Part shown: positions 3,572 to 36,918 of the stretch, in pieces
Layout of the letters: each line of letters starts with the position of its first letter
How positions within the stretch are numbered: position 1 is the stretch's first letter
Assembly: GCA_903857825.1 (NCBI GenBank)
Contig: CAIOGI010000010.1
Span: 46,542-110,541 of the forward strand
Direction: 5' to 3'
DNA: 64,000 bases
Origin: Candidatus Tayloriibacteriota bacterium
GTDB taxonomy: Bacteria; Patescibacteriota; Minisyncoccia; Phycocordibacterales; PALSA-1337
Program-made: the position numbers and the translations under genes
Notes under the pieces: generated by a model
Seen by the model: only the letters and a program-made list of their open reading frames with translations
Told to the model about the DNA's origin: nothing
Databases searched by the model: none

Positions 3572-4453
3572 CTATAGCCCCTCCTTCTTCAATTCCTCAA
3601 TTAGTTTCTGGGCGGTTTTCGATACTTTCTTTGGCATTTCAACCTTTGTAACTATTAGCAAATCACCTCTCCGACCTCTTTCGTCCGGAACACCCTTTTG
3701 TCTAACTCTCAATATTTCATTATGCGTTGTTCCTGTTGGTATCTTCAATTCAATTTTTCCATCAAGTGTTTCAACATCCAATGTAGCTCCTAGTAGTGCC
3801 GTTGTAAGTTTGAGCTGTAATTCCATTACTATGTTGTAACCCTCTTTTCTAAATACAGAATGTTCCTCCACCCAGATACGCACAATGAGATCACCTTTTC
3901 CTCCAGGACCATCCTCGCCTTTTCCTTGAACTCTTAACCCCTGACCGTTCTCGATACCAGCAGGAATAGTAACGACTATTTTTTCTTTATTAATATTTAA
4001 TTCTTTCTCAAGTCCAAAAACTGATTCCTTGAAAGAGAGTTGCACATCTACAGTAATATTTGCTCCTCTACGAGGTCGTCTACCTCCTCCAAAAAAATCT
4101 CCGAATAGATCCCCAAGATCGAATTCAAAGCTTTGGCCTCCTCCTTGTGCTTGCTGTCTCGCAAATCCAGAAAAGTCGAAGCCACCGAATCCTTGACCTC
4201 CATTAAATCCATTGAAGCCACCTTGCCCACCACCGAAACCATTTGGTTCAGCTGGACCAAATGTATCGTACTGCTGTCGCTTCTGATCATCAGAAAGTGT
4301 TGTGTAAGCTTCGTTTATCTCTTTGAATTTCGCATCGTTTCCATTATTTTTGTCAGGATGATGTTCATGAGCAAGCTTTCTAAAAGCTTTCTTTATATCG
4401 TCTTTTGAAGCGCTCTTTTCAACGCCGAGTATTTTGTAATAGTCTTTTGACAT
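3572..4453 (-). CDS. dnaJ: J-domain chaperone of the DnaJ/CbpA class (J-domain, Gly/Phe-rich linker, C-terminal substrate-binding domains; no CxxCxGxG zinc finger)
   Basis: YYKILGV...HPDKN J-domain with HPD, long GGFGG/GF repeat linker, no cysteine repeats; 293 aa. Confidence 0.85.
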
Positions 4454-4486: not shown

Positions 4487-5233
4487 CTATTTCAACCCAT
4501 CAACATATTTTTCTGCAGACTTTAACACAGCTTCCAACATAAAATTCTCATAATCATCTTTACCTCCTCCAGTCTGAGCCTTTTCAAGTGATGTAACGTA
4601 AATCCTGCGATCTTCAGGATGAATGACTACTGGAGGATAATCGTTCTGCATTAGTATAAGGTTAAGCAATAGTCTAGCTGTTCTTCCATTGCCATCTGTA
4701 AACGGGTGTATGGAAACCAGGCGATAATGCGCTTCAATTGCTGTCAGCACAGGATGCTCAGTTGTTTTGCTAATCCATTTTACAAATTCTGTCATAAGAT
4801 CTGGTACTGAAGCTGGGTTTGGCATGATAGATGTAGAACCGGTAATGCGTACAGGTATTGTACGCAATCTTCCAGAGTTTACGTCGTCATTCTTTTGCAA
4901 AAGAATTCTATGTATATCGAGAATAACAGCCAGGGTAATATCACTTAGCTTTTTATTATTTTCAGCAAACTTTTTTATATATTCTACTGCTTCAGAATGA
5001 TTCTTTGCTTCTATAAGCTCTCTAAGTTGTTTACCTTCTATGCTTATATCCTTTTCTACTACTAAGGCTGTTTCTTGGCGAGATAGAGTGTTTCCTTCGA
5101 GAGCATTAGAAGTATAAGTAAGCTCAATACGATACCATTCATCTAGGTTCTTTACGAGTGCTGGGTCAATAATTCCATGACTAGCAATTTTTGCTTTAAT
5201 TTCATCGATTTTACTAAGTAATTCTTGTTTCAT
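4487..5233 (-). CDS. Fic family protein (canonical AMPylation motif)
   Basis: HPFTDGNGRTARLL matches Fic core HxFx(D/E)GNGRxxR; 248 aa. Confidence 0.85.
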   Translation of the reverse strand: MKQELLSKIDEIKAKIASHGIIDPALVKNLDEWYRIELTYTSNALEGNTLSRQETALVVEKDISIEGKQLRELIEAKNHSEAVEYIKKFAENNKKLSDITLAVILDIHRILLQKNDDVNSGRLRTIPVRITGSTSIMPNPASVPDLMTEFVKWISKTTEHPVLTAIEAHYRLVSIHPFTDGNGRTARLLLNLILMQNDYPPVVIHPEDRRIYVTSLEKAQTGGGKDDYENFMLEAVLKSAEKYVDGLK

Positions 5234-5628: not shown

Positions 5629-5883
5629 TTATGCATATTTTGCATAATACTCGTTTGTAATGTGCATTATTTGCACTTTCCTTTTGAACTTGTAGGGATT
5701 ACTTACAAGTTGAGTATGTTACAAATTGGAACTACCTTATACAAGTATTCCGGAATTTCCGGATAACTGCCGAACCGTTGCATTATTTGCAACAGTTGCC
5801 TGGGCCTCAACTTGTTCCAATATGGAAACAGTAGTAAAGGATTTCTTTACCACTCATCCAGTTGTTGCATTATTTGCAACAAC
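5629..5883. promoter_or_regulatory. array of four inverted repeats with core TGCA-N5-TGCA: ATGCA-tattt-TGCAT (5630-5644), GTGCA-ttatt-TGCAC (5661-5675), GTTGCA-ttatt-TGCAAC (5777-5793), GTTGTTGCA-ttatt-TGCAACAAC (5861-5883); operator-like
   Basis: read directly; the last site has perfect 9-bp arms; sites lie 110-370 bp upstream of the PemK/MazF-like gene; a TTGACA at 5926-5931 lies between the array and the gene. Confidence 0.5.
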
Positions 5884-29561: not shown

Positions 29562-32468
29562 TTAAATGACTATATTTATAAGTTTTCCTTTGATAAAAAT
29601 AACCTTTTTTATCTCTTTATCCACAAGCCACTTATTAATCTCTGAAATTTTCTTTATCTCCTCTCTTACAAAACTTTCATCTGCTTCTATATTCGCCTCT
29701 ATCATTCCCCTCACTTTACCATTAATTTGTACCATTATTGACACTGTGTCGCTTACAAGTTTCTTCTCATCATACTTTGGCCATTTTTCAGTGTGAATTG
29801 ATTTTTTGTTTTTTAGATTTGCCCATATTTCTTCTGTAAAATGTGGGGCAAATGGTGATAACAGTCTTAGTAATATTTCATAATGCTCTTTGCTTACAGC
29901 TTTTCCCTTTTCTATTTCATTTACAAGTATCATCATTCCACTAATTGCTGTATTAAACTTCATGTCCTCAATATCTTCAGTGACTTTCTTTATAGTTTTA
30001 TGAACTAATATATTCAGACTATCACTGTGTCCTCTCAGCGACAATGGATCTGTCTTCGTGGCATAGCCAGTCGACAGACCATAGTCGCTTGCGGACACAT
30101 TACCAAATACAACTTTTTCCTGCAATTTCCAAACCTTTTCTATAAATCTTCTTGCTCCTGCTATGTTATTTGTATCCCAAGCAATAGCTTGATCGAAGGG
30201 TCCCATAAACATTTCATATATTCTCAAGGTATCCGCTCCGACAGTCTTAACAATATCATCTGGATTTATTACATTTCCTCGAGATTTTGACATTTTCTCA
30301 CCCCCCTCAGCTAGAATCATACCGTGAGATGTGCGCTTTTTGTACGGCTCACTGGTAGGTACTAGACCTTGATCAAAAAGGAATTTATGCCAAAAACGAG
30401 AGTATAACAAGTGTAGTGTTGTATGTTCCATACCACCGTTATACCAGTCTACCTGACCCCAATATTTCAACTTTTTCTTGTCTGCAAAAGCCTTATTATT
30501 TTTCGGATCCATATAGCGTAAATAGTACCAGCTTGAGCCTGCCCAATTTGGCATTGTATCTGTTTCTCTCTTTGCCTTTCCTTTACACTTTGGGCACTTC
30601 GTATTTACCCATTTATCAATTGATGCGAGCGGACTCTCACCACTCTCTGTTGGTGCATAATTTTTAACCTTTGGTAATTTCAAAGGTAATTCTTTGTCTG
30701 GCAATGGAACAATCCCACATTTTTCACAATGAACAACAGGAATAGGCTCACCCCAATAACGTTGACGTGAGAATATCCAGTCGCGGAGTTTAAATTTGGT
30801 AACCCACTTACCTCCGACAAATTCGGTGATTTCTTGCTTTACTGACTCAGAATCCTTGCTGTTGAATTTGCCAGAATTAATTAAAAGACCTTTTTCAGTA
30901 CTCGCATTATTTAGATTGTTTAAGCGGTGTAACCAAATATCTAACTCTCCACAACGCATTGTGTCTGGACGAATATCTTTTAGATCTAGCCAAATTGGCT
31001 CATGTTTTTCAGATTCATCTTTACTTACAGTTCCAGAAGCATCGCCGTCCAATTCGAACAATGCAACATTAAAATATGCCACTCTATTTTCATCCTTATG
31101 CGCGGCGAAGAATTCACTTTTTACTGGACCACCAAGTATTCTAATGAATTTTAAATCTTTAATTCCAGTCTCTTCCAATATTTCTCTTCGAGCCGCTGTT
31201 TCAACGTTTTCACCTTCCTCAACTCCCCCAACAACAAAAGTGGTCCATGGTTGCTTTTTCCACTTCAGACACAAGATTTTGCCATTTTTAGGGTTTCTAA
31301 TTATTGCTTGAATGGCTTTTCTTTCTACAACTTTCTTTCCAGCAACATGAGGATTTATATAATCAATTCTTACTGGCATTACTACGTCTCGTATTTCAAG
31401 TCTATATTTCTTCGCAAAGTCCCAGTCTCTTTCATCATGTGCTGGTACAGCCATTACTGCTCCCGTTCCGTAGTCTGCTAAAACATAGTCAGCAAGCCAA
31501 ACTGGCACCTCTTCATTGTTTGCTGGATTTATAGCTTTTACACCCTTTAGTTCAACTCCAGTTTTTTCAGTCTTTGCATCTGTTCTATCAATTTCACTCT
31601 TTGTCTTTGATTCTTTAATATATTTTTCAACATCAGCCTTGTTCGAAACTTTAGCAATTAATTCACCAACAAATTCATGTTCTGGTGCAAGAACTACATA
31701 AGTAACTCCAAACAACGTATCTGGCCTAGTCGTAAATACCTTAATTTTTTTATCATTACCTTTTATTTGAAAGTCAATTTCAGCTCCCTCACTCTTTCCT
31801 ATCCAATTCCTCTGCTGTATCTTTATCTTTTCAAGAAAATCTGTTTCATCTAGGTCTTTATCAAGTCTTTCGGCGTATTTTGTAATAGCAAGCATCCATT
31901 GCTCCTTTTCCTTTTTCTCTACTTTCGTTCCACATCGCTCACAGCAACCATTTATAACCTCTTCATTAGCAAGACCAGTCAAATCCTTTGGACACCAATT
32001 GATAGTCATTTTTTTCTTGTAAGCCAAACCTGCTTTCAAGAATTGTAAGAAAATCCACTGTGTCCATTTATAGTATTTTGGATCAGTAGTATCTATTTCA
32101 CGAGACCAGTCAAAAGAAATACCGAGAGATTTTATTTGCTTTTTAAATGTATCAGAATTTTTCTTTGTAATTATTGCAGGGTTAATACCTGTCTTTATCG
32201 CATAATTCTCTGCTGGCAAACCGAAAGCATCCCAACCTATCGGGTACATTACATTAAGACCCTCTGCACGCTTTTTGCGGGCAATAATATCCATTCCCAC
32301 GTATGATCTAGGATGTCCTATATGAAGTCCTGCTCCAGAGGGATAAGGAAACTCAATCAGGGCATAAAACTTTTTCTTTTTGCTATCCTCTTTGACTTTA
32401 TTTGGCTTTTTCTTCTCCCAAACTTTCTGCCATTTCGTTTCTATTTTTTTATGATCATATTCATTCAT
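29562..32468 (-). CDS. leuS: leucine--tRNA ligase carrying an inserted Nudix hydrolase domain
   Basis: HIGH (GLHIGHPRSY), editing-domain TTRPDT and GTGAVMAVPAHD, KMSKS; Nudix box GGVEEGENVETAARREILEETGI at residues about 414-436. Confidence 0.95.
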   Translation of the reverse strand: MNEYDHKKIETKWQKVWEKKKPNKVKEDSKKKKFYALIEFPYPSGAGLHIGHPRSYVGMDIIARKKRAEGLNVMYPIGWDAFGLPAENYAIKTGINPAIITKKNSDTFKKQIKSLGISFDWSREIDTTDPKYYKWTQWIFLQFLKAGLAYKKKMTINWCPKDLTGLANEEVINGCCERCGTKVEKKEKEQWMLAITKYAERLDKDLDETDFLEKIKIQQRNWIGKSEGAEIDFQIKGNDKKIKVFTTRPDTLFGVTYVVLAPEHEFVGELIAKVSNKADVEKYIKESKTKSEIDRTDAKTEKTGVELKGVKAINPANNEEVPVWLADYVLADYGTGAVMAVPAHDERDWDFAKKYRLEIRDVVMPVRIDYINPHVAGKKVVERKAIQAIIRNPKNGKILCLKWKKQPWTTFVVGGVEEGENVETAARREILEETGIKDLKFIRILGGPVKSEFFAAHKDENRVAYFNVALFELDGDASGTVSKDESEKHEPIWLDLKDIRPDTMRCGELDIWLHRLNNLNNASTEKGLLINSGKFNSKDSESVKQEITEFVGGKWVTKFKLRDWIFSRQRYWGEPIPVVHCEKCGIVPLPDKELPLKLPKVKNYAPTESGESPLASIDKWVNTKCPKCKGKAKRETDTMPNWAGSSWYYLRYMDPKNNKAFADKKKLKYWGQVDWYNGGMEHTTLHLLYSRFWHKFLFDQGLVPTSEPYKKRTSHGMILAEGGEKMSKSRGNVINPDDIVKTVGADTLRIYEMFMGPFDQAIAWDTNNIAGARRFIEKVWKLQEKVVFGNVSASDYGLSTGYATKTDPLSLRGHSDSLNILVHKTIKKVTEDIEDMKFNTAISGMMILVNEIEKGKAVSKEHYEILLRLLSPFAPHFTEEIWANLKNKKSIHTEKWPKYDEKKLVSDTVSIMVQINGKVRGMIEANIEADESFVREEIKKISEINKWLVDKEIKKVIFIKGKLINIVI

Positions 32469-34192: not shown

Positions 34193-34390
34193 TCATGTCT
34201 TACAAATCCAATTTAGAGACCTTTCTCTAACCTTAGATTTTCGAAGTTCTTCAGACTCAGCATACTGACCAGCACAATCATCATCACAAAATGCTTTCCC
34301 TCCTTTGTTACGAACATGATGCTCACCCAAATTCTTACCGCAATTTACACAACCAAACTTAGTTCTAGAGAATGAATAATGTCGTATCAT
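34193..34390 (-). CDS. small zinc-ribbon protein (CxxC...C...C)
   Basis: GCVNCGKNLGEHH...AFCDDDCAGQY; 65 aa. Confidence 0.45.
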   Translation of the reverse strand: MIRHYSFSRTKFGCVNCGKNLGEHHVRNKGGKAFCDDDCAGQYAESEELRKSKVRERSLNWICKT

Positions 34391-34648
34391 ACTTTCCTTT
34401 CTGTTTATATATTATACACAAGCCCAAAATATATACAAAAAAGGCGAGAAGAAGGCGACGTGTCCTCCAACTCGCCCAAAGGTTTACGAGCCTACCGAAC
34501 ACTCGTTCAATCCTTTCTCCTTAAGCAACTAGGGAAATCGTGTGAGCGCACAGTTCCGATTTCTTATTCCTGATTTCTGAGACAAAGCGAACTGTCTTGT
34601 CCGTTCAGGAACGCTGCTAGTTAAATTGTAACATTAAAGTAATTAAAT

Positions 34649-34667
34649 CCTAAACTCCATCACATCC
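34649..34667. repeat. 19-bp direct repeat ctaaactccatcacatccc (left copy; 22/23 when extended), a duplicate of the ychF 3' end, immediately downstream of the Fic gene
   Basis: exact 19-mer also at 35829-35847, where it encodes the ychF C-terminus (DGDVMEFRI*). Confidence 0.75.
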
Positions 34668-34688
34668 CGTAAAATAATTCTTCGTATT

Positions 34689-35753
34689 TTAACTTTTTGC
34701 AATAACCGCATAATTCTTTGCAGCAAAAATATATTGCTCTATAAATATCTTTTTAAACGAGATTAAAGAATTTAATTCGTAAAATACTAATATCGCTTCT
34801 TTGTACTCATTCTCATCGACACTACGATATGATAGTGGAGCAAATCCATGAGCAAGTAAAATTGAATTCGCTATCAATCTTGAAGTTCTTTTATTTCCAT
34901 CCTCGAATGGCTGAATGTAACTCAAACCAAGTAACATTACTAAGGCCTTTGAATATGGAGACTTCATTTTATTCACTATCTCACAGAGTGTTTCAATAGC
35001 TTCTTTTATTTGATGAATATTATCAAGTGGTCTATATATGGAACCTGTAACTCCAACAGCTTTATTACGAAGACCATGATCAATATTTAAGTCCTTTATC
35101 AAAATTTTATGTATTTCTTCTATTACTGACAATTTAATATTCATAAATTCATGAATATTTTCTCTTATTTTTTTAAATGCATACTTATGATTAAGAATCA
35201 TCGAAGCCTCAAGCTTATTATGACCCTCTGCTTCTATGCCCTTACTTATAAGTTTCTCAGTGTCTAATAATGTATATGTATTTCCTTCTATTTTTGAAGA
35301 TTTCCATGATAGTTCAATAATAAATCTCTCTAGCTCTTTCTCCTCGAGTGTATTTGAAATCGACTTTATATTATTTTTATATATTTCTGTAGCTTTATTT
35401 AATTCATCTATTTCAAAGTCTAGAAAAATATCCTCATTGATATGGTTAAATAAATCAAAATTATAGCTCTTTAGACCAATTCGTTTATCTGGTTCAATAT
35501 TACAATATTCATGAGCATTAAGATTCGAATATATCCTACCCTTTGTACTTATTGAATACACAATTGACCGACCTGCACCAGATAATGCTAAGAGATTGAG
35601 TGATTTTAATTCAGTCAATTCACGCTTGACTGTAACAAGCGAAACTTCACTTTTACTTTCAAGTAGTTTGTTGTAAACATCAGACGAAGACAACTCTTCA
35701 TTATTAAGAAAAAAACTCAATATTATTTGTTGATTTTGAGCAATTTTTATCAT
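34689..35753 (-). CDS. Fic family protein with N-terminal winged-HTH-like region and a degenerate Fic motif (QPFEDGNKRTSRL: Gln replaces the catalytic His, Lys replaces the second Gly)
   Basis: motif read from translation; start preferred at MIKIAQ (35753) because the operator palindrome would otherwise lie inside the longer ORF-track coding region (to 35786). Confidence 0.7.
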   Translation of the reverse strand: MIKIAQNQQIILSFFLNNEELSSSDVYNKLLESKSEVSLVTVKRELTELKSLNLLALSGAGRSIVYSISTKGRIYSNLNAHEYCNIEPDKRIGLKSYNFDLFNHINEDIFLDFEIDELNKATEIYKNNIKSISNTLEEKELERFIIELSWKSSKIEGNTYTLLDTEKLISKGIEAEGHNKLEASMILNHKYAFKKIRENIHEFMNIKLSVIEEIHKILIKDLNIDHGLRNKAVGVTGSIYRPLDNIHQIKEAIETLCEIVNKMKSPYSKALVMLLGLSYIQPFEDGNKRTSRLIANSILLAHGFAPLSYRSVDENEYKEAILVFYELNSLISFKKIFIEQYIFAAKNYAVIAKS

Positions 35754-35798
35754 AATCGTATCATTTAATACTCTTAATCGTATCAAAATGATACGATT
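35754..35798. promoter_or_regulatory. operator-like element: perfect palindrome AATCGTATCA-aaa-TGATACGATT (35776-35798) plus an extra half-site AATCGTATCA (35754-35763) abutting the Fic start codon
   Basis: read directly; 10-bp arms; lies between the Fic gene start and the ychF stop. Confidence 0.55.
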
Positions 35799-35820
35799 AG
35801 TGCAATGTCCAATATTTGGT

Positions 35821-36918
35821 TTATATTCTAAACTCCATCACATCCCCATCTTTCACTATATATTCCTTCCCTTCTGTCCTTAGCAACCCTTTCTCCCTTG
35901 CAGCACCAAAAGATCCTGACTCTATCAACTTATCCCATTCTATAACTTCAGCTCGTATAAATTTATCCTTAAAGTCTCCATGAATAGCCGTTCCTGCTTC
36001 TGGTGCTGTCCAACCACGTCCAATAGTCCATGCGCGAGTTTCCTTTTCACCAGTTGTAAAATATGTAATCAAATTCAAAAGCTCATAACCTTTCTTTATT
36101 AAGTCATCAATACCATCATCCTTAGCGCCCAGTCCTTCTCGTAACTCCTTTTTTTCACTGTCATCAATATCTTTTAGCTCATGCTCTATACCAGCATCAA
36201 CTATGACCCACTTGGCTTTGTTTTCATCAAAAAAATTCATTAGAGCTTGATATCTTTCGTCTTTAATTTCATCAAGGTTCTTTCCTCCTGCTTTTTTATT
36301 CAAAATATACATGAAAGGCTTAGAAGTAAGCAGGTGTAGAGACTTTATAAATGGTTTTTCAAACTCATCTGCAATCACAGTAGAAGCTAGTCTTCCCGCA
36401 TCAAGAGCTGTCTTTATTTTCTCAAGCAAACCATTTTCGATAATTGCCTCCTTTTTTGCTTGTTGTATTTCTCTTCCGAGATTTGAAAGACGCTTCGTGA
36501 CAGTTTGTAGGTCAGCAAGTATAAGCTCAAGGTTAATAACTTCAATGTCCTTCAATGGATTAATCTTTCCATCAACGTGGATAATATTGTCATCTTCAAA
36601 AATACGAACCACTTCTGCGATAGCATCAGTCTCGCGAATATTTGTTAAAAATTGATTACCAAGACCTTCACCATCAGAGGCACCTTTCACGAGTCCAGCA
36701 ATATCTACGAACTCTACAACAGCCGGTACAGTCTTTTGTGTCTTAGAAAAGTCAGAAAGCTTGTATAGTCTATCATCAGGAACAGCCACAACACCCACAG
36801 ACGGGTCAATAGTTGCAAAAGGATAATTAGCAACAAGTACACTCTTTTTTGTAAGAGCGTTGAATAATGTACTTTTCCCCACGTTTGGTAAACCTACAAT
36901 TCCAATTGAAAGTGACAT
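35821..36918 (-). CDS. ychF: ribosome-binding ATPase YchF (Obg-family GTPase)
   Basis: [18 protein letters not shown] (G1), ...[10 protein letters not shown]..., C-terminal TGS domain; 365 aa. Confidence 0.9.
35829..35847. repeat. 19-bp direct repeat (right copy) within the 3' end of ychF
   Basis: identical to 34649-34667. Confidence 0.75.

Follow-up and report, generated by a model that had tools for sequence, protein, structure and literature searches.

A winged-helix Fic protein with a Gln/Lys active-site motif and a conserved upstream operator: a candidate self-repressing accessory module in Patescibacteria

The subject of this report is a gene for an unusual Fic protein, together with the DNA just upstream of it, in a stretch of 64,000 nucleotides (nt) from contig CAIOGI010000010.1 of a Candidatus Tayloriibacteriota bacterium. 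This whole stretch is referred to below as the window. Fic enzymes are defined by a catalytic histidine. The protein encoded here has a glutamine at that place and a lysine in place of the second glycine of the canonical motif, and it carries a winged helix-turn-helix (wHTH) at its N-terminus; we refer to it as wHTH-Fic(Q/K). The gene follows ychF (open reading frame (ORF) 35821-36918, minus strand) on the same strand at a distance of 67 nt, and this gap holds a perfect palindrome, a third copy of its half-site, and a putative promoter. The other Fic gene of the window, at 4487-5233 on the minus strand, encodes a canonical class II protein with the motif HPFTDGNGRTAR and an SNALEGN inhibitory motif, without an N-terminal winged helix. 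The features of the locus are collected in Table 1, and homologous loci are cited by our own L numbers.

Table 1. Features of the wHTH-Fic(Q/K) locus in window coordinates
Feature	Position	Strand	Basis or remark
Coding sequence, wHTH-Fic(Q/K) protein, 354 amino acids (aa)	34689..35753	-	ORF list; Pfam; ATG 35753-35751
N-terminal winged helix-turn-helix, residues 1-75	35529..35753	-	Pfam FUR; AlphaFold 2 (AF2) secondary structure
Predicted recognition helix, about residues 39-51, SLVTVKRELTELK		-	AF2; T41, K43, R44 invariant or nearly so
Class II inhibitory-helix motif SSKIEGN, residues 152-158, Glu156	35280..35300	-	FICD alignment
Flap-like segment GLRNKAVGVTGSIYRPLDN, residues 227-245, before Fic motif	35019..35075	-	FICD alignment
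Fic active-site motif variant QPFEDGNKRTSR, residues 281-292	34878..34913	-	FICD alignment
Main operator, perfect palindrome TAATCGTATCA-TTT-TGATACGATTA	35775..35799	.	Inverted-repeat search; homologous loci
Third half-site AAATGATACGATT abutting ATG	35754..35766	-	22 nt start-to-start from right arm
-35-like hexamer TTGCAC, directly upstream of left arm	35800..35805	-	Conserved TTG; putative promoter element
Extended -10-like TGATACGAT (TGn + TACGAT) inside right arm	35777..35785	-	Read from sequence
Putative inserted cassette: promoter/operator, gene, ~20 nt tail	34669..35820	-	Between two repeat copies
Upstream direct-repeat copy, real ychF 3' end (…GDVMEFRI*)	35821..35846	-	24/26 identical to other copy
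Downstream direct-repeat copy, orphan ychF 3'-end remnant	34643..34668	-	20 nt after Fic stop

Two domains are recognized in the protein by Pfam, a Fic/DOC domain (PF02661) at residues 207-299, with an E-value of 3.9e-13 and 50.5 bits against a cutoff of 24, and a weak match to the FUR-type winged helix (PF01475) at residues 3-57 (E=1.8e-5). The AlphaFold model, for which an alignment of 44 homologues served as input, has a predicted local distance difference test score (pLDDT) of 88 and a predicted template modelling score of 0.89. In this model residues 6-68 form a winged helix made up of helices 6-17, 23-32, and 39-51 and strands 55-58 and 65-68, and the all-helical Fic body follows. The nearest solved structures found by Foldseek are those of FICD/HYPE and Caenorhabditis elegans Fic-1 (E of about 1e-7, 20% identity), the match to FICD having a probability of 1.0 and a template modelling score of about 0.56-0.61; BT_2513, 7xux, SO_4266, and others come after them. 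At the level of sequence, phmmer against the PDB returns FICD at E=2e-10 and 7xux at E=2.7e-7, and there is no solved structure for any member of the wHTH-Fic(Q/K) subfamily. From sequence and model, the protein is predicted to join an N-terminal winged helix, an inhibitory helix in cis that carries Glu156, and a class II Fic fold like that of FICD and SoFic.

The active site is where the protein departs from known Fic enzymes. The canonical HxFx(D/E)GNGRxxR with its catalytic His is replaced by QPFEDGNKRTSR, which phmmer sets opposite HPFIDGNGRTSR of FICD ('yiQPFEDGNKRTSRL' opposite 'yiHPFIDGNGRTSRL'), and this alignment puts Gln281 at the position of the catalytic His and Lys288 at that of the second Gly. 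The Pfam profile likewise sets Gln at the His position. Asp285, Asn287, Arg289, and Arg292 are kept, as are the F and G of the canonical motif. Among the best 120 homologues, which are 57-97% identical to the query, 109 have QPFEDGNKR and 7 more differ at the fourth motif position alone, so that about 116 of the 120 retain Q..KR. An exhaustive HMMER search over 1.84 billion cluster representatives yielded 3540 clusters below an E-value of 1e-3 and 292 below 1e-30. A recognizable motif is present in 118 of the best 150 representatives, and in 117 of these 118 it reads Q-x-[F/Y]-x-D-[G/A]-N-K-R-x-x-R, at E<=1e-38 and with identity to the query down to about 30%. In the alignment of 44 sequences D285, G286, N287, K288, R289, and R292 are invariant, together with many other core residues, and Q281 is found in at least 90%. 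Where the cluster members are named at all, they are called 'Fic family protein'. Across this breadth of sequences the Gln/Lys motif is kept as the mark of a large family and is not the product of decay.

The signature has been seen before. In 2015 Khater and Mohanty catalogued the consensus Qx[F/Y]x[D/E][G/V]NKR, which QPFEDGNKR fits, as 'clade D2 of the Doc subfamily' (PMC4454073), a set of 45 mostly single-domain sequences described without function, operator, or context (PMC4454073). Judged by this motif consensus, the wHTH-Fic(Q/K) family is probably clade D2. The lysine has a precedent too: in Doc, Lys at position 8 of the motif makes ATP bind in an inverted orientation, with the result that phosphate and not AMP is transferred and Doc acts as a kinase (PMC4177925).

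N-terminal to the Fic core and on the same chain lies the signature that marks class II Fic proteins, (S/T)xxxE(G/N), in the form SSKIEGN. The phmmer alignment pairs 'SSKIEGNT' (residues 152-159) with 'TVAIEGNT' of FICD, and Glu156 corresponds to FICD Glu234. S152, S153, E156, G157, and N158 are invariant in the 44 sequences, and SS[KR]IEG is present in 112 of 120 close homologues. The flap-like segment ahead of the Fic motif is similarly constrained, with R229, G234, G237, S238, P242, L243, and D244 invariant in the same alignment; by analogy with the Fic literature, it may act as a target-docking flap. A preliminary description of this DNA, made from the sequence alone, had already noted the Gln and Lys substitutions, an N-terminal HTH-like region, and the canonical nature of the first Fic gene at 4487-5233, and all of these hold: the substitutions in both the phmmer and the Pfam alignments, the HTH in the FUR match and the AF2 winged helix, and the canonical motif in HPFTDGNGRTAR. 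Its reading of them fared less evenly, being supported in part and in part wrong or incomplete. The motif, there called degenerate, is strictly conserved as QxFxDGNKRxxR across a large family. It had also stated that both an inhibitory helix and an antitoxin partner are absent; the first statement is contradicted by SSKIEGN in cis, and the second stands, as no neighbouring gene is conserved. The Doc-kinase hallmark at motif position 8 and the cassette of gene and operator at the ychF 3' end, discussed below, did not figure in it.

Read on the gene strand, the 67-nt gap between ychF and the gene runs …TTGCAC-TAATCGTATCA-TTT-TGATACGATTA-AGAGTATTAAA-TGATACGATT-ATG. The two arms, TAATCGTATCA (35799-35789) and TGATACGATTA (35785-35775), are 11 nt each and 100% complementary with TTT between them, and the third copy, TGATACGATT (35763-35754), touches the ATG. 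The exact 10-mer occurs three times in the window, each time at the operator, and matches with one mismatch elsewhere in the window are no more frequent than in shuffled sequence. The ATG at 35753 as start is supported by the alignment of homologues. A longer ORF starting from TTG at 35786 was rejected as a candidate: in homologues the distance between third half-site and ATG varies by non-multiples of 3, and an in-frame stop lies between palindrome and ATG in 42 of 76 homologous loci. The palindrome is therefore non-coding.

Hundreds of species of Patescibacteria have the single-gene module. Conservation of this arrangement was followed in a genome set with one genome per species, in which relatives were confirmed at 502 places and 80 loci were fetched; operator counts are out of 80, made up of 79 usable fetched loci and the window's own. 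The 21-nt palindrome ATCGTATCAnnnTGATACGAT, with 18 specified bases, precedes the gene in 78 of the 80 when up to 2 mismatches are allowed, and in 53 it matches without any; the sequence beyond the operator cannot be aligned among these loci. The consensus is TTGnnnTAATCGTATCAataTGATACGATtA…tAAATGATACGAa, that is, TTGnnnTAATCGTATCAnnnTGATACGATTA-(12)-TGATACGA-ATG. In the arms of the palindrome the core positions have an information content of 1.5-2.0 bits, and for the third half-site the value is 1.3-1.8 bits. Right arm and third site are 22 nt apart in 72 of 78 loci, and the third site abuts the ATG in 44 of 76, the others having an offset of 1-14 nt. In viral contigs (IMG/VR) ATCGTATCAnnnTGATACGAT has 3 exact matches, none beside a Fic gene, where about one would be expected by chance on a rough estimate, and these are uninformative. 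They lie in L093 (4471-4491, in an intergenic gap of a phage-like contig, where a 72-aa ORF starts 17 nt farther on), L094 (950-970), and L095 (810-830), and two of the three extend to TAATCG…CGATT. As a separate observation, the metagenome locus L126 has a canonical HPFVDGNGR Fic gene without winged helix, and a 12-1-12 near-palindrome, AAGTGTAGAGCA-a-TGCTCTACGCTT, stands 8 nt before its ATG.

More distant relatives were drawn from 80 metagenome loci that are 31-49% identical to the relative P0224, which is itself 34% identical to the query. The layout is kept in this set, but the half-site sequence is not always kept; where it differs in the distant subfamilies, it does so in the two arms and the third site alike, and the 22-nt spacing is retained. 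Half-sites of the type GTCTCA/TGAGAC are found in L117 and L124. L151 and L156 have the type TTCGTGCCAA/TTGGCACGAA (GTGCCAA/TTGGCAC), and there TTGGCACGAA occurs a third time at a distance of exactly 22 nt downstream. GCTCA/TGAGC half-sites occur in L146, L166, L170, and L175, the spacing being again 22 nt in L170, while L104 has GTAACA/TGTTAC and L145 GTAGCA/TGCTAC. The recognition helix changes along with them. SLVTVKR goes with GTATCA, SKAT..R with GTCTCA, SERTLKR with GTGCCA, SIATLKR or SYATVKR with GCTCA, and SRFTVLR with GTAGCA. This correlation between helix and half-site is what an operator recognized by its own gene product predicts.

The palindrome also appears to coincide with the promoter. 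TTGCAC is separated from TGATACGAT by a 17-nt spacer that consists of the left arm and the loop. The TTG is conserved, as at least 55 of 78 loci have it 8 nt ahead of ATCGTATCA, with 0.9-1.4 bits. Subfamilies with a single palindrome (L097, L118, L120) have TTGACn-17/18-TACGAT placed 7-10 nt before the ATG, which would be the geometry of a leaderless transcript. Across the window as a whole, a Shine-Dalgarno-like sequence precedes just 2 of the 36 ORFs of at least 200 aa, and many genes have TGnTATAAT ending 6-9 nt before the ATG, which suggests that mRNAs with no leader or a very short one are the norm in this organism. A protein bound to the palindrome would occlude the promoter, since the palindrome fills both the spacer and the extended -10 element, and we consider that the gene very probably represses itself. 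The preliminary description had anticipated much of this. Its perfect palindrome at the start of the gene is real, although the arms proved to be 11-3-11; the half-site abutting the ATG is where it was said to be; and its worry that the palindrome might be coding, were the start at 35786 the true one, finds no support in homologues. Autoregulation, which it had proposed, now has strong comparative support from operator conservation, co-variation, and promoter overlap.

Gene and operator together form a unit of 1.15 kb that behaves as an accessory cassette. There is no synteny: at the 80 genome loci no neighbour is conserved, and 274 flanking ORFs fall into 239 clusters. The distribution is patchy. 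Five lineages with a YchF 91-95% identical to that of the window have NUDIX, ycaO, or leuS after ychF and no Fic gene, whereas the cassette is present at the same ychF site in a population of 23 contigs with a 100% identical YchF and in L001, where YchF is 90% and the Fic protein 74% identical. The absence in the five lineages is at the level of gene order, and an empty site exact to the nucleotide was not obtained: divergence of the intergenic DNA prevents an alignment of the junction, and for ychF, too, identity at the DNA level is about 81%. The orphan ychF remnant downstream of the cassette in the window shares 25-27 identical nt with both copies of the ychF end in L001.

Such repeats flank the cassette at other sites as well. 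Of 73 testable loci, 15 have a piece of host sequence immediately before the operator that appears again directly behind the stop codon; among control genes the count is 5 of 116, two artefactual scores having been removed. Repeat length is 21-227 nt and identity between the copies 75-100%, with a different sequence at each site, and repeat-bearing loci include the window, L001, L006, L023, L036, L038, L041, L057, L062, L064, L068, L148, and L158. The duplicated host piece is the ychF 3' end in the window and L001, terminator hairpins elsewhere, and in L057 the 5' end of a gene that, from our own reading of its translation, we take to be methionyl-tRNA synthetase. At the tightest junctions (L006, L034, L036, L038) the cassette begins 5-9 nt ahead of ATCGTATCA and extends 1-10 nt past the stop codon. 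Weaker cases are also seen in metagenomes, several of them duplicated terminators. These repeats are too long and too variable in length for the target-site duplications of an ordinary transposase, and the gene next to the insertion is left whole. Going by sequence, the cassette appears to have been inserted at many chromosomal sites, here at the ychF 3' end, often with duplication of host DNA. Its distribution resembles that of toxin-antitoxin and defence genes, and some of its neighbours are AbiEii, Doc-like, canonical Fic, and RhuM-Fic genes.

Several observations were made in the surroundings of these sites. In L023 the AAA_14-DUF4143 ATPase gene directly downstream is bounded by a third copy of the host repeat of the cassette (4257-4296 and 5681-5720), which suggests serial insertions at one site. 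In L086, whose YchF is 95% identical, about 230 nt of inserted DNA, in which no gene is called, follow the ychF 3' end (2334-2580) and are bounded by a second GAGTTTAGGATTTAGG; the ychF 3' end is therefore seemingly a recurrent insertion hot spot in this lineage. Within the window, a G+C-richer, gene-free stretch at 34420-34640 (minus strand) between the Fic cassette and a 65-aa ORF ends in a hairpin and U-run (…GGCGAG…CTCGCCTTTTTT) with a folding z-score of -2.2, a possible unclassified small RNA; Rfam has no match at the gathering threshold in the whole window, nor at E<=1 in 34350-34700. Farther along, leuS (29562-32468, minus strand, 968 aa) has a NUDIX domain inside the synthetase, and on the identical protein in L081 and L082 Pfam gives the order tRNA-synt_1…NUDIX…tRNA-synt_1. 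L083-L085 have a leuS of 798 aa without NUDIX and a separate NUDIX gene beside ychF, and L090 has a leuS with NUDIX and HAD_2.

The interpretation that we favour is that the locus is a self-contained, self-repressing accessory module consisting of a single gene, in which a wHTH, the Glu156 helix, and a Fic fold act on one chain. We put its probability at slightly better than even, roughly 55%. The winged helices of a dimer would contact the 11-3-11 palindrome, and one more subunit or dimer would occupy the third half-site, covering the transcript start and the start-codon region. Transcription would in this way be held low by the gene's own product, as with CccR and toxin-antitoxin operons. 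The Fic domain would still be expected to bind nucleotide, with all residues that hold Mg-NTP (Asp285, Asn287, Arg289, Arg292) present, and a Doc-like inverted orientation of the nucleotide is likely in view of Lys288. Canonical AMPylation is not expected, because the domain has Gln281 in place of the general-base His and carries the Doc-type Lys288. It is possible that the domain has a non-canonical phosphoryl-transfer or hydrolytic activity gated by Glu156; that the flap, Glu156, and the residues binding phosphate are all invariant speaks for this reading. Alternatively, it may have a non-catalytic role in binding or sensing a nucleotide or target, which is favoured by the loss of the sole known catalytic base. 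We infer no preference and weight the two about equally. The whole unit resembles an antitoxin, with a DNA-binding domain and inhibitory helix, fused to a Fic toxin in one chain, and a toxic or defensive role may be supposed by this likeness; toxic activity without the catalytic His is doubtful.

A number of points weigh against the self-repressing module. DNA binding by the 354-aa protein is deduced from co-occurrence and co-variation of protein and site, and phylogeny alone could produce part of this signal. A generic sigma-70 scan did not report the TTGCAC-17-TACGAT pair, and the stretch from palindrome to third site contains another -10-like hexamer, TATTAA (35770-35765). In the AF2 model pLDDT falls below 50 exactly at SSKIEGN, and docking of this motif on Arg292 is a prediction. 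The enrichment of flanking repeats is modest, with repeats at some control genes too and just 3 of 57 loci in an independent metagenome set reaching the same repeat score. Finally, the Fic domain itself poses a dilemma: a dead domain hardly fits the strict conservation of flap, Glu156, and phosphate site, and no known Fic chemistry readily accommodates the loss of the His.

Other explanations share some of this evidence. The one that survives best, though we regard it as unlikely, is that the Fic domain senses without catalysis, the protein being a conventional ligand-responsive transcription factor with a regulon rather than anything toxin-like. The family-wide loss of the catalytic His, the conserved DNA-binding domain and operator, and the retention of all nucleotide-contacting residues would suit a nucleotide sensor. 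However, the window holds no further copy of the operator, the search for sites having covered 64 kb of this genome and 7 kb of the others, the gene is accessory, patchy, and missing in close relatives, which would be unusual for a housekeeping regulator, and the invariant flap and inhibitory Glu are features tied to target docking and catalytic gating.

Less likely again is that the palindrome and third repeat act as RNA, either as a read-through or 5' untranslated hairpin or through alternative pairings (A:B vs A:B') that mask the start codon. The 11-bp complementarity of the arms is perfect, their co-variation between subfamilies would also fit a stem, and the left arm can pair with either downstream copy, over 14 nt with the third site and over 11 nt with the right arm; ychF lies upstream on the same strand with no terminator predicted between. 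But within the close subfamily the 66 non-Watson-Crick cells consist of 49 of transversion type, 11 G:U, and 6 A:C. The arms are conserved as sequence and wobble is not favoured, so there is no sign of selection for pairing. The fixed-register TTG and the extended -10 in the right arm would put the left arm upstream of the transcript, the third site 22 nt away in the same orientation fits protein binding on the same face, and the recognition helix changes with the half-site. The hairpin reading was rejected for its lack of an RNA-compatible wobble bias and of a predicted terminator at the site.

We give little credence to the idea that another, host-encoded regulator binds the operator and that the winged helix has some other role. 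Protein and site are linked only by deduction, which leaves an opening for it, but in more than 70 genomes the site accompanies the gene in contexts that are otherwise unrelated and share no further conserved neighbour, it differs where the protein's recognition helix differs, and at the tightest junctions the cassette boundary is just 5-9 nt upstream of it. It is very improbable that the protein is the inactivated relic of an ordinary Fic AMPylase, or that a misalignment hides an active one: there are two departures from HxFx(D/E)GNGRxxR and a canonical Fic gene in the same window, but Gln and Lys are fixed across hundreds of clusters at 30-97% identity, with full-length ORFs and many invariant residues, both the Pfam profile and phmmer put Gln at the His position, and the motif holds no alternative His. 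Just as little speaks for the protein being the transposase or recombinase of its own cassette with the half-sites as element ends, as a discrete unit with no other gene and variable-length target duplications at many sites might suggest, for a half-site at the cassette 3' end was found in 3 of 79 loci (at most 1 mismatch), below the shuffled expectation, so that transposon-like ends were rejected, no Fic fold is known that cuts or joins DNA, and similar host repeats also border unrelated accessory genes nearby, in one case (L023) as a third copy, which points to a general host-level insertion process.

The family reaches beyond Patescibacteria, as plasmid homologues in Bacteroides and Alphaproteobacteria show. 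A plasmid copy in Bacteroides finegoldii is 44% identical with the motif QPFADGNKR, and those of Sulfitobacter (QAFADVNKR) and Cereibacter (QPFEDVNKR) align over their full length at about 30% identity. The latter two, L177 (Sulfitobacter sp. S190) and L178 (Cereibacter azotoformans p1), have 446-458 aa and ParDE, HipA, and integrase genes nearby, and are preceded by ATCGTTTCA or ATCGTGACA repeats, present as three copies of the ATCGTTTCA or ATCGTGACAT type (L177 about 2290-2450, L178 about 2380-2440). These strains are tractable systems for the family. In phage records the similarity is partial, confined to the Fic domain, and below 32% identity.

The ingredients of this system are already known, namely variant Fic motifs, autoregulating Fic-HTH proteins, and mobile toxin-antitoxin-like genes. 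Our literature searches returned no description of a winged-helix-fused Q/K family, of its operator, or of its cassette behaviour, and no paper joining Fic, Patescibacteria, and AMPylation; searches with the half-site strings gave unrelated primer and oligonucleotide matches alone. What makes the family worth attention is that a large and conserved group has dropped the defining His and kept all else, a variant noticed in 2015 and left without explanation. We offer only tentatively, as something that may well prove otherwise, that the Q/K Fic domain is a nucleotide-binding or base-independent phosphoryl-transfer module gated by Glu156 and coupled to DNA binding, and that an undescribed insertion process spreads the 1.15-kb unit among Patescibacteria genomes. 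If the first part were true, this would be a Fic 'pseudoenzyme' switch or a new Fic chemistry in the form of a single-chain toxin-antitoxin or defence unit, and a nucleotide-gated switch or base-independent chemistry would extend the range of the Fic fold. If the second were true, the process would copy 20-230 nt of host DNA, in many cases the end of a gene or a terminator, and so keep the interrupted genes intact. The insertion signature of the cassette is also relevant to the question of how the streamlined genomes of Patescibacteria take up accessory genes with no damage to the neighbours. Three handles on the Q-type family are available in the fused DNA-binding domain, the exact co-evolving operator, which makes rules of specificity readable, and the plasmid members in culturable Sulfitobacter and Cereibacter.

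By analogy, the module may work like CccR and the phd-doc/FicTA modules. Doc is expressed under the control of palindromic operators, to which Phd binds through a DNA-binding moiety that is joined to an inhibitory helix. The protein shares with Doc of phage P1 the Lys at motif position 8 (Lys288 here) and a selfish, mobile distribution. Doc, however, keeps the catalytic His and is a small single domain with a separate antitoxin, whereas the present protein has Gln281 and three parts in 354 aa; no Doc structure is among the PDB sequence matches at E<=1 (phmmer). With FICD/HYPE, SoFic SO_4266, and BT_2513 it has in common the fold, the S/TxxxE(G/N) motif in cis, and the single-gene organization. 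Those class II proteins have HxFxDGNGR, AMPylate or deAMPylate, and carry their winged helix, where present, at the C-terminus. SoFic is also the best PADLOC model, with E=1.2e-19 over residues 118-304 against 32-217 of the 361 model positions, a match that reflects general Fic-domain similarity, and the catalytic His required for AMPylation by SoFic is absent here.

The closest precedent for self-repression is CccR of Yersinia pseudotuberculosis, in which a Fic domain is followed by a C-terminal HTH and which represses its own promoter through inverted repeats at -35/-10 (PMC9755527); its structure is probably PDB 7xux. Like the 354-aa protein, CccR joins Fic and DNA-binding domains on one chain, and it acts as a dimer. 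It differs in its C-terminal HTH, its 10-bp repeats 26 bp apart, and its catalytic His192, and it AMPylates FtsZ and is an effector of the type VI secretion system. Here, in contrast, the winged helix lies at the N-terminus, 3 nt separate the arms, a third site is present, Gln and Lys occupy the motif, and the hosts are Patescibacteria, with no secretion context. With clade D2 the family shares its signature, the plasmid homologues having the V variant QxFxDVNKR; beyond what has been described for that clade, it has a winged helix, a class II inhibitory motif, a scaffold that is FICD-like and not Doc-like, and an operator that co-evolves with the protein.

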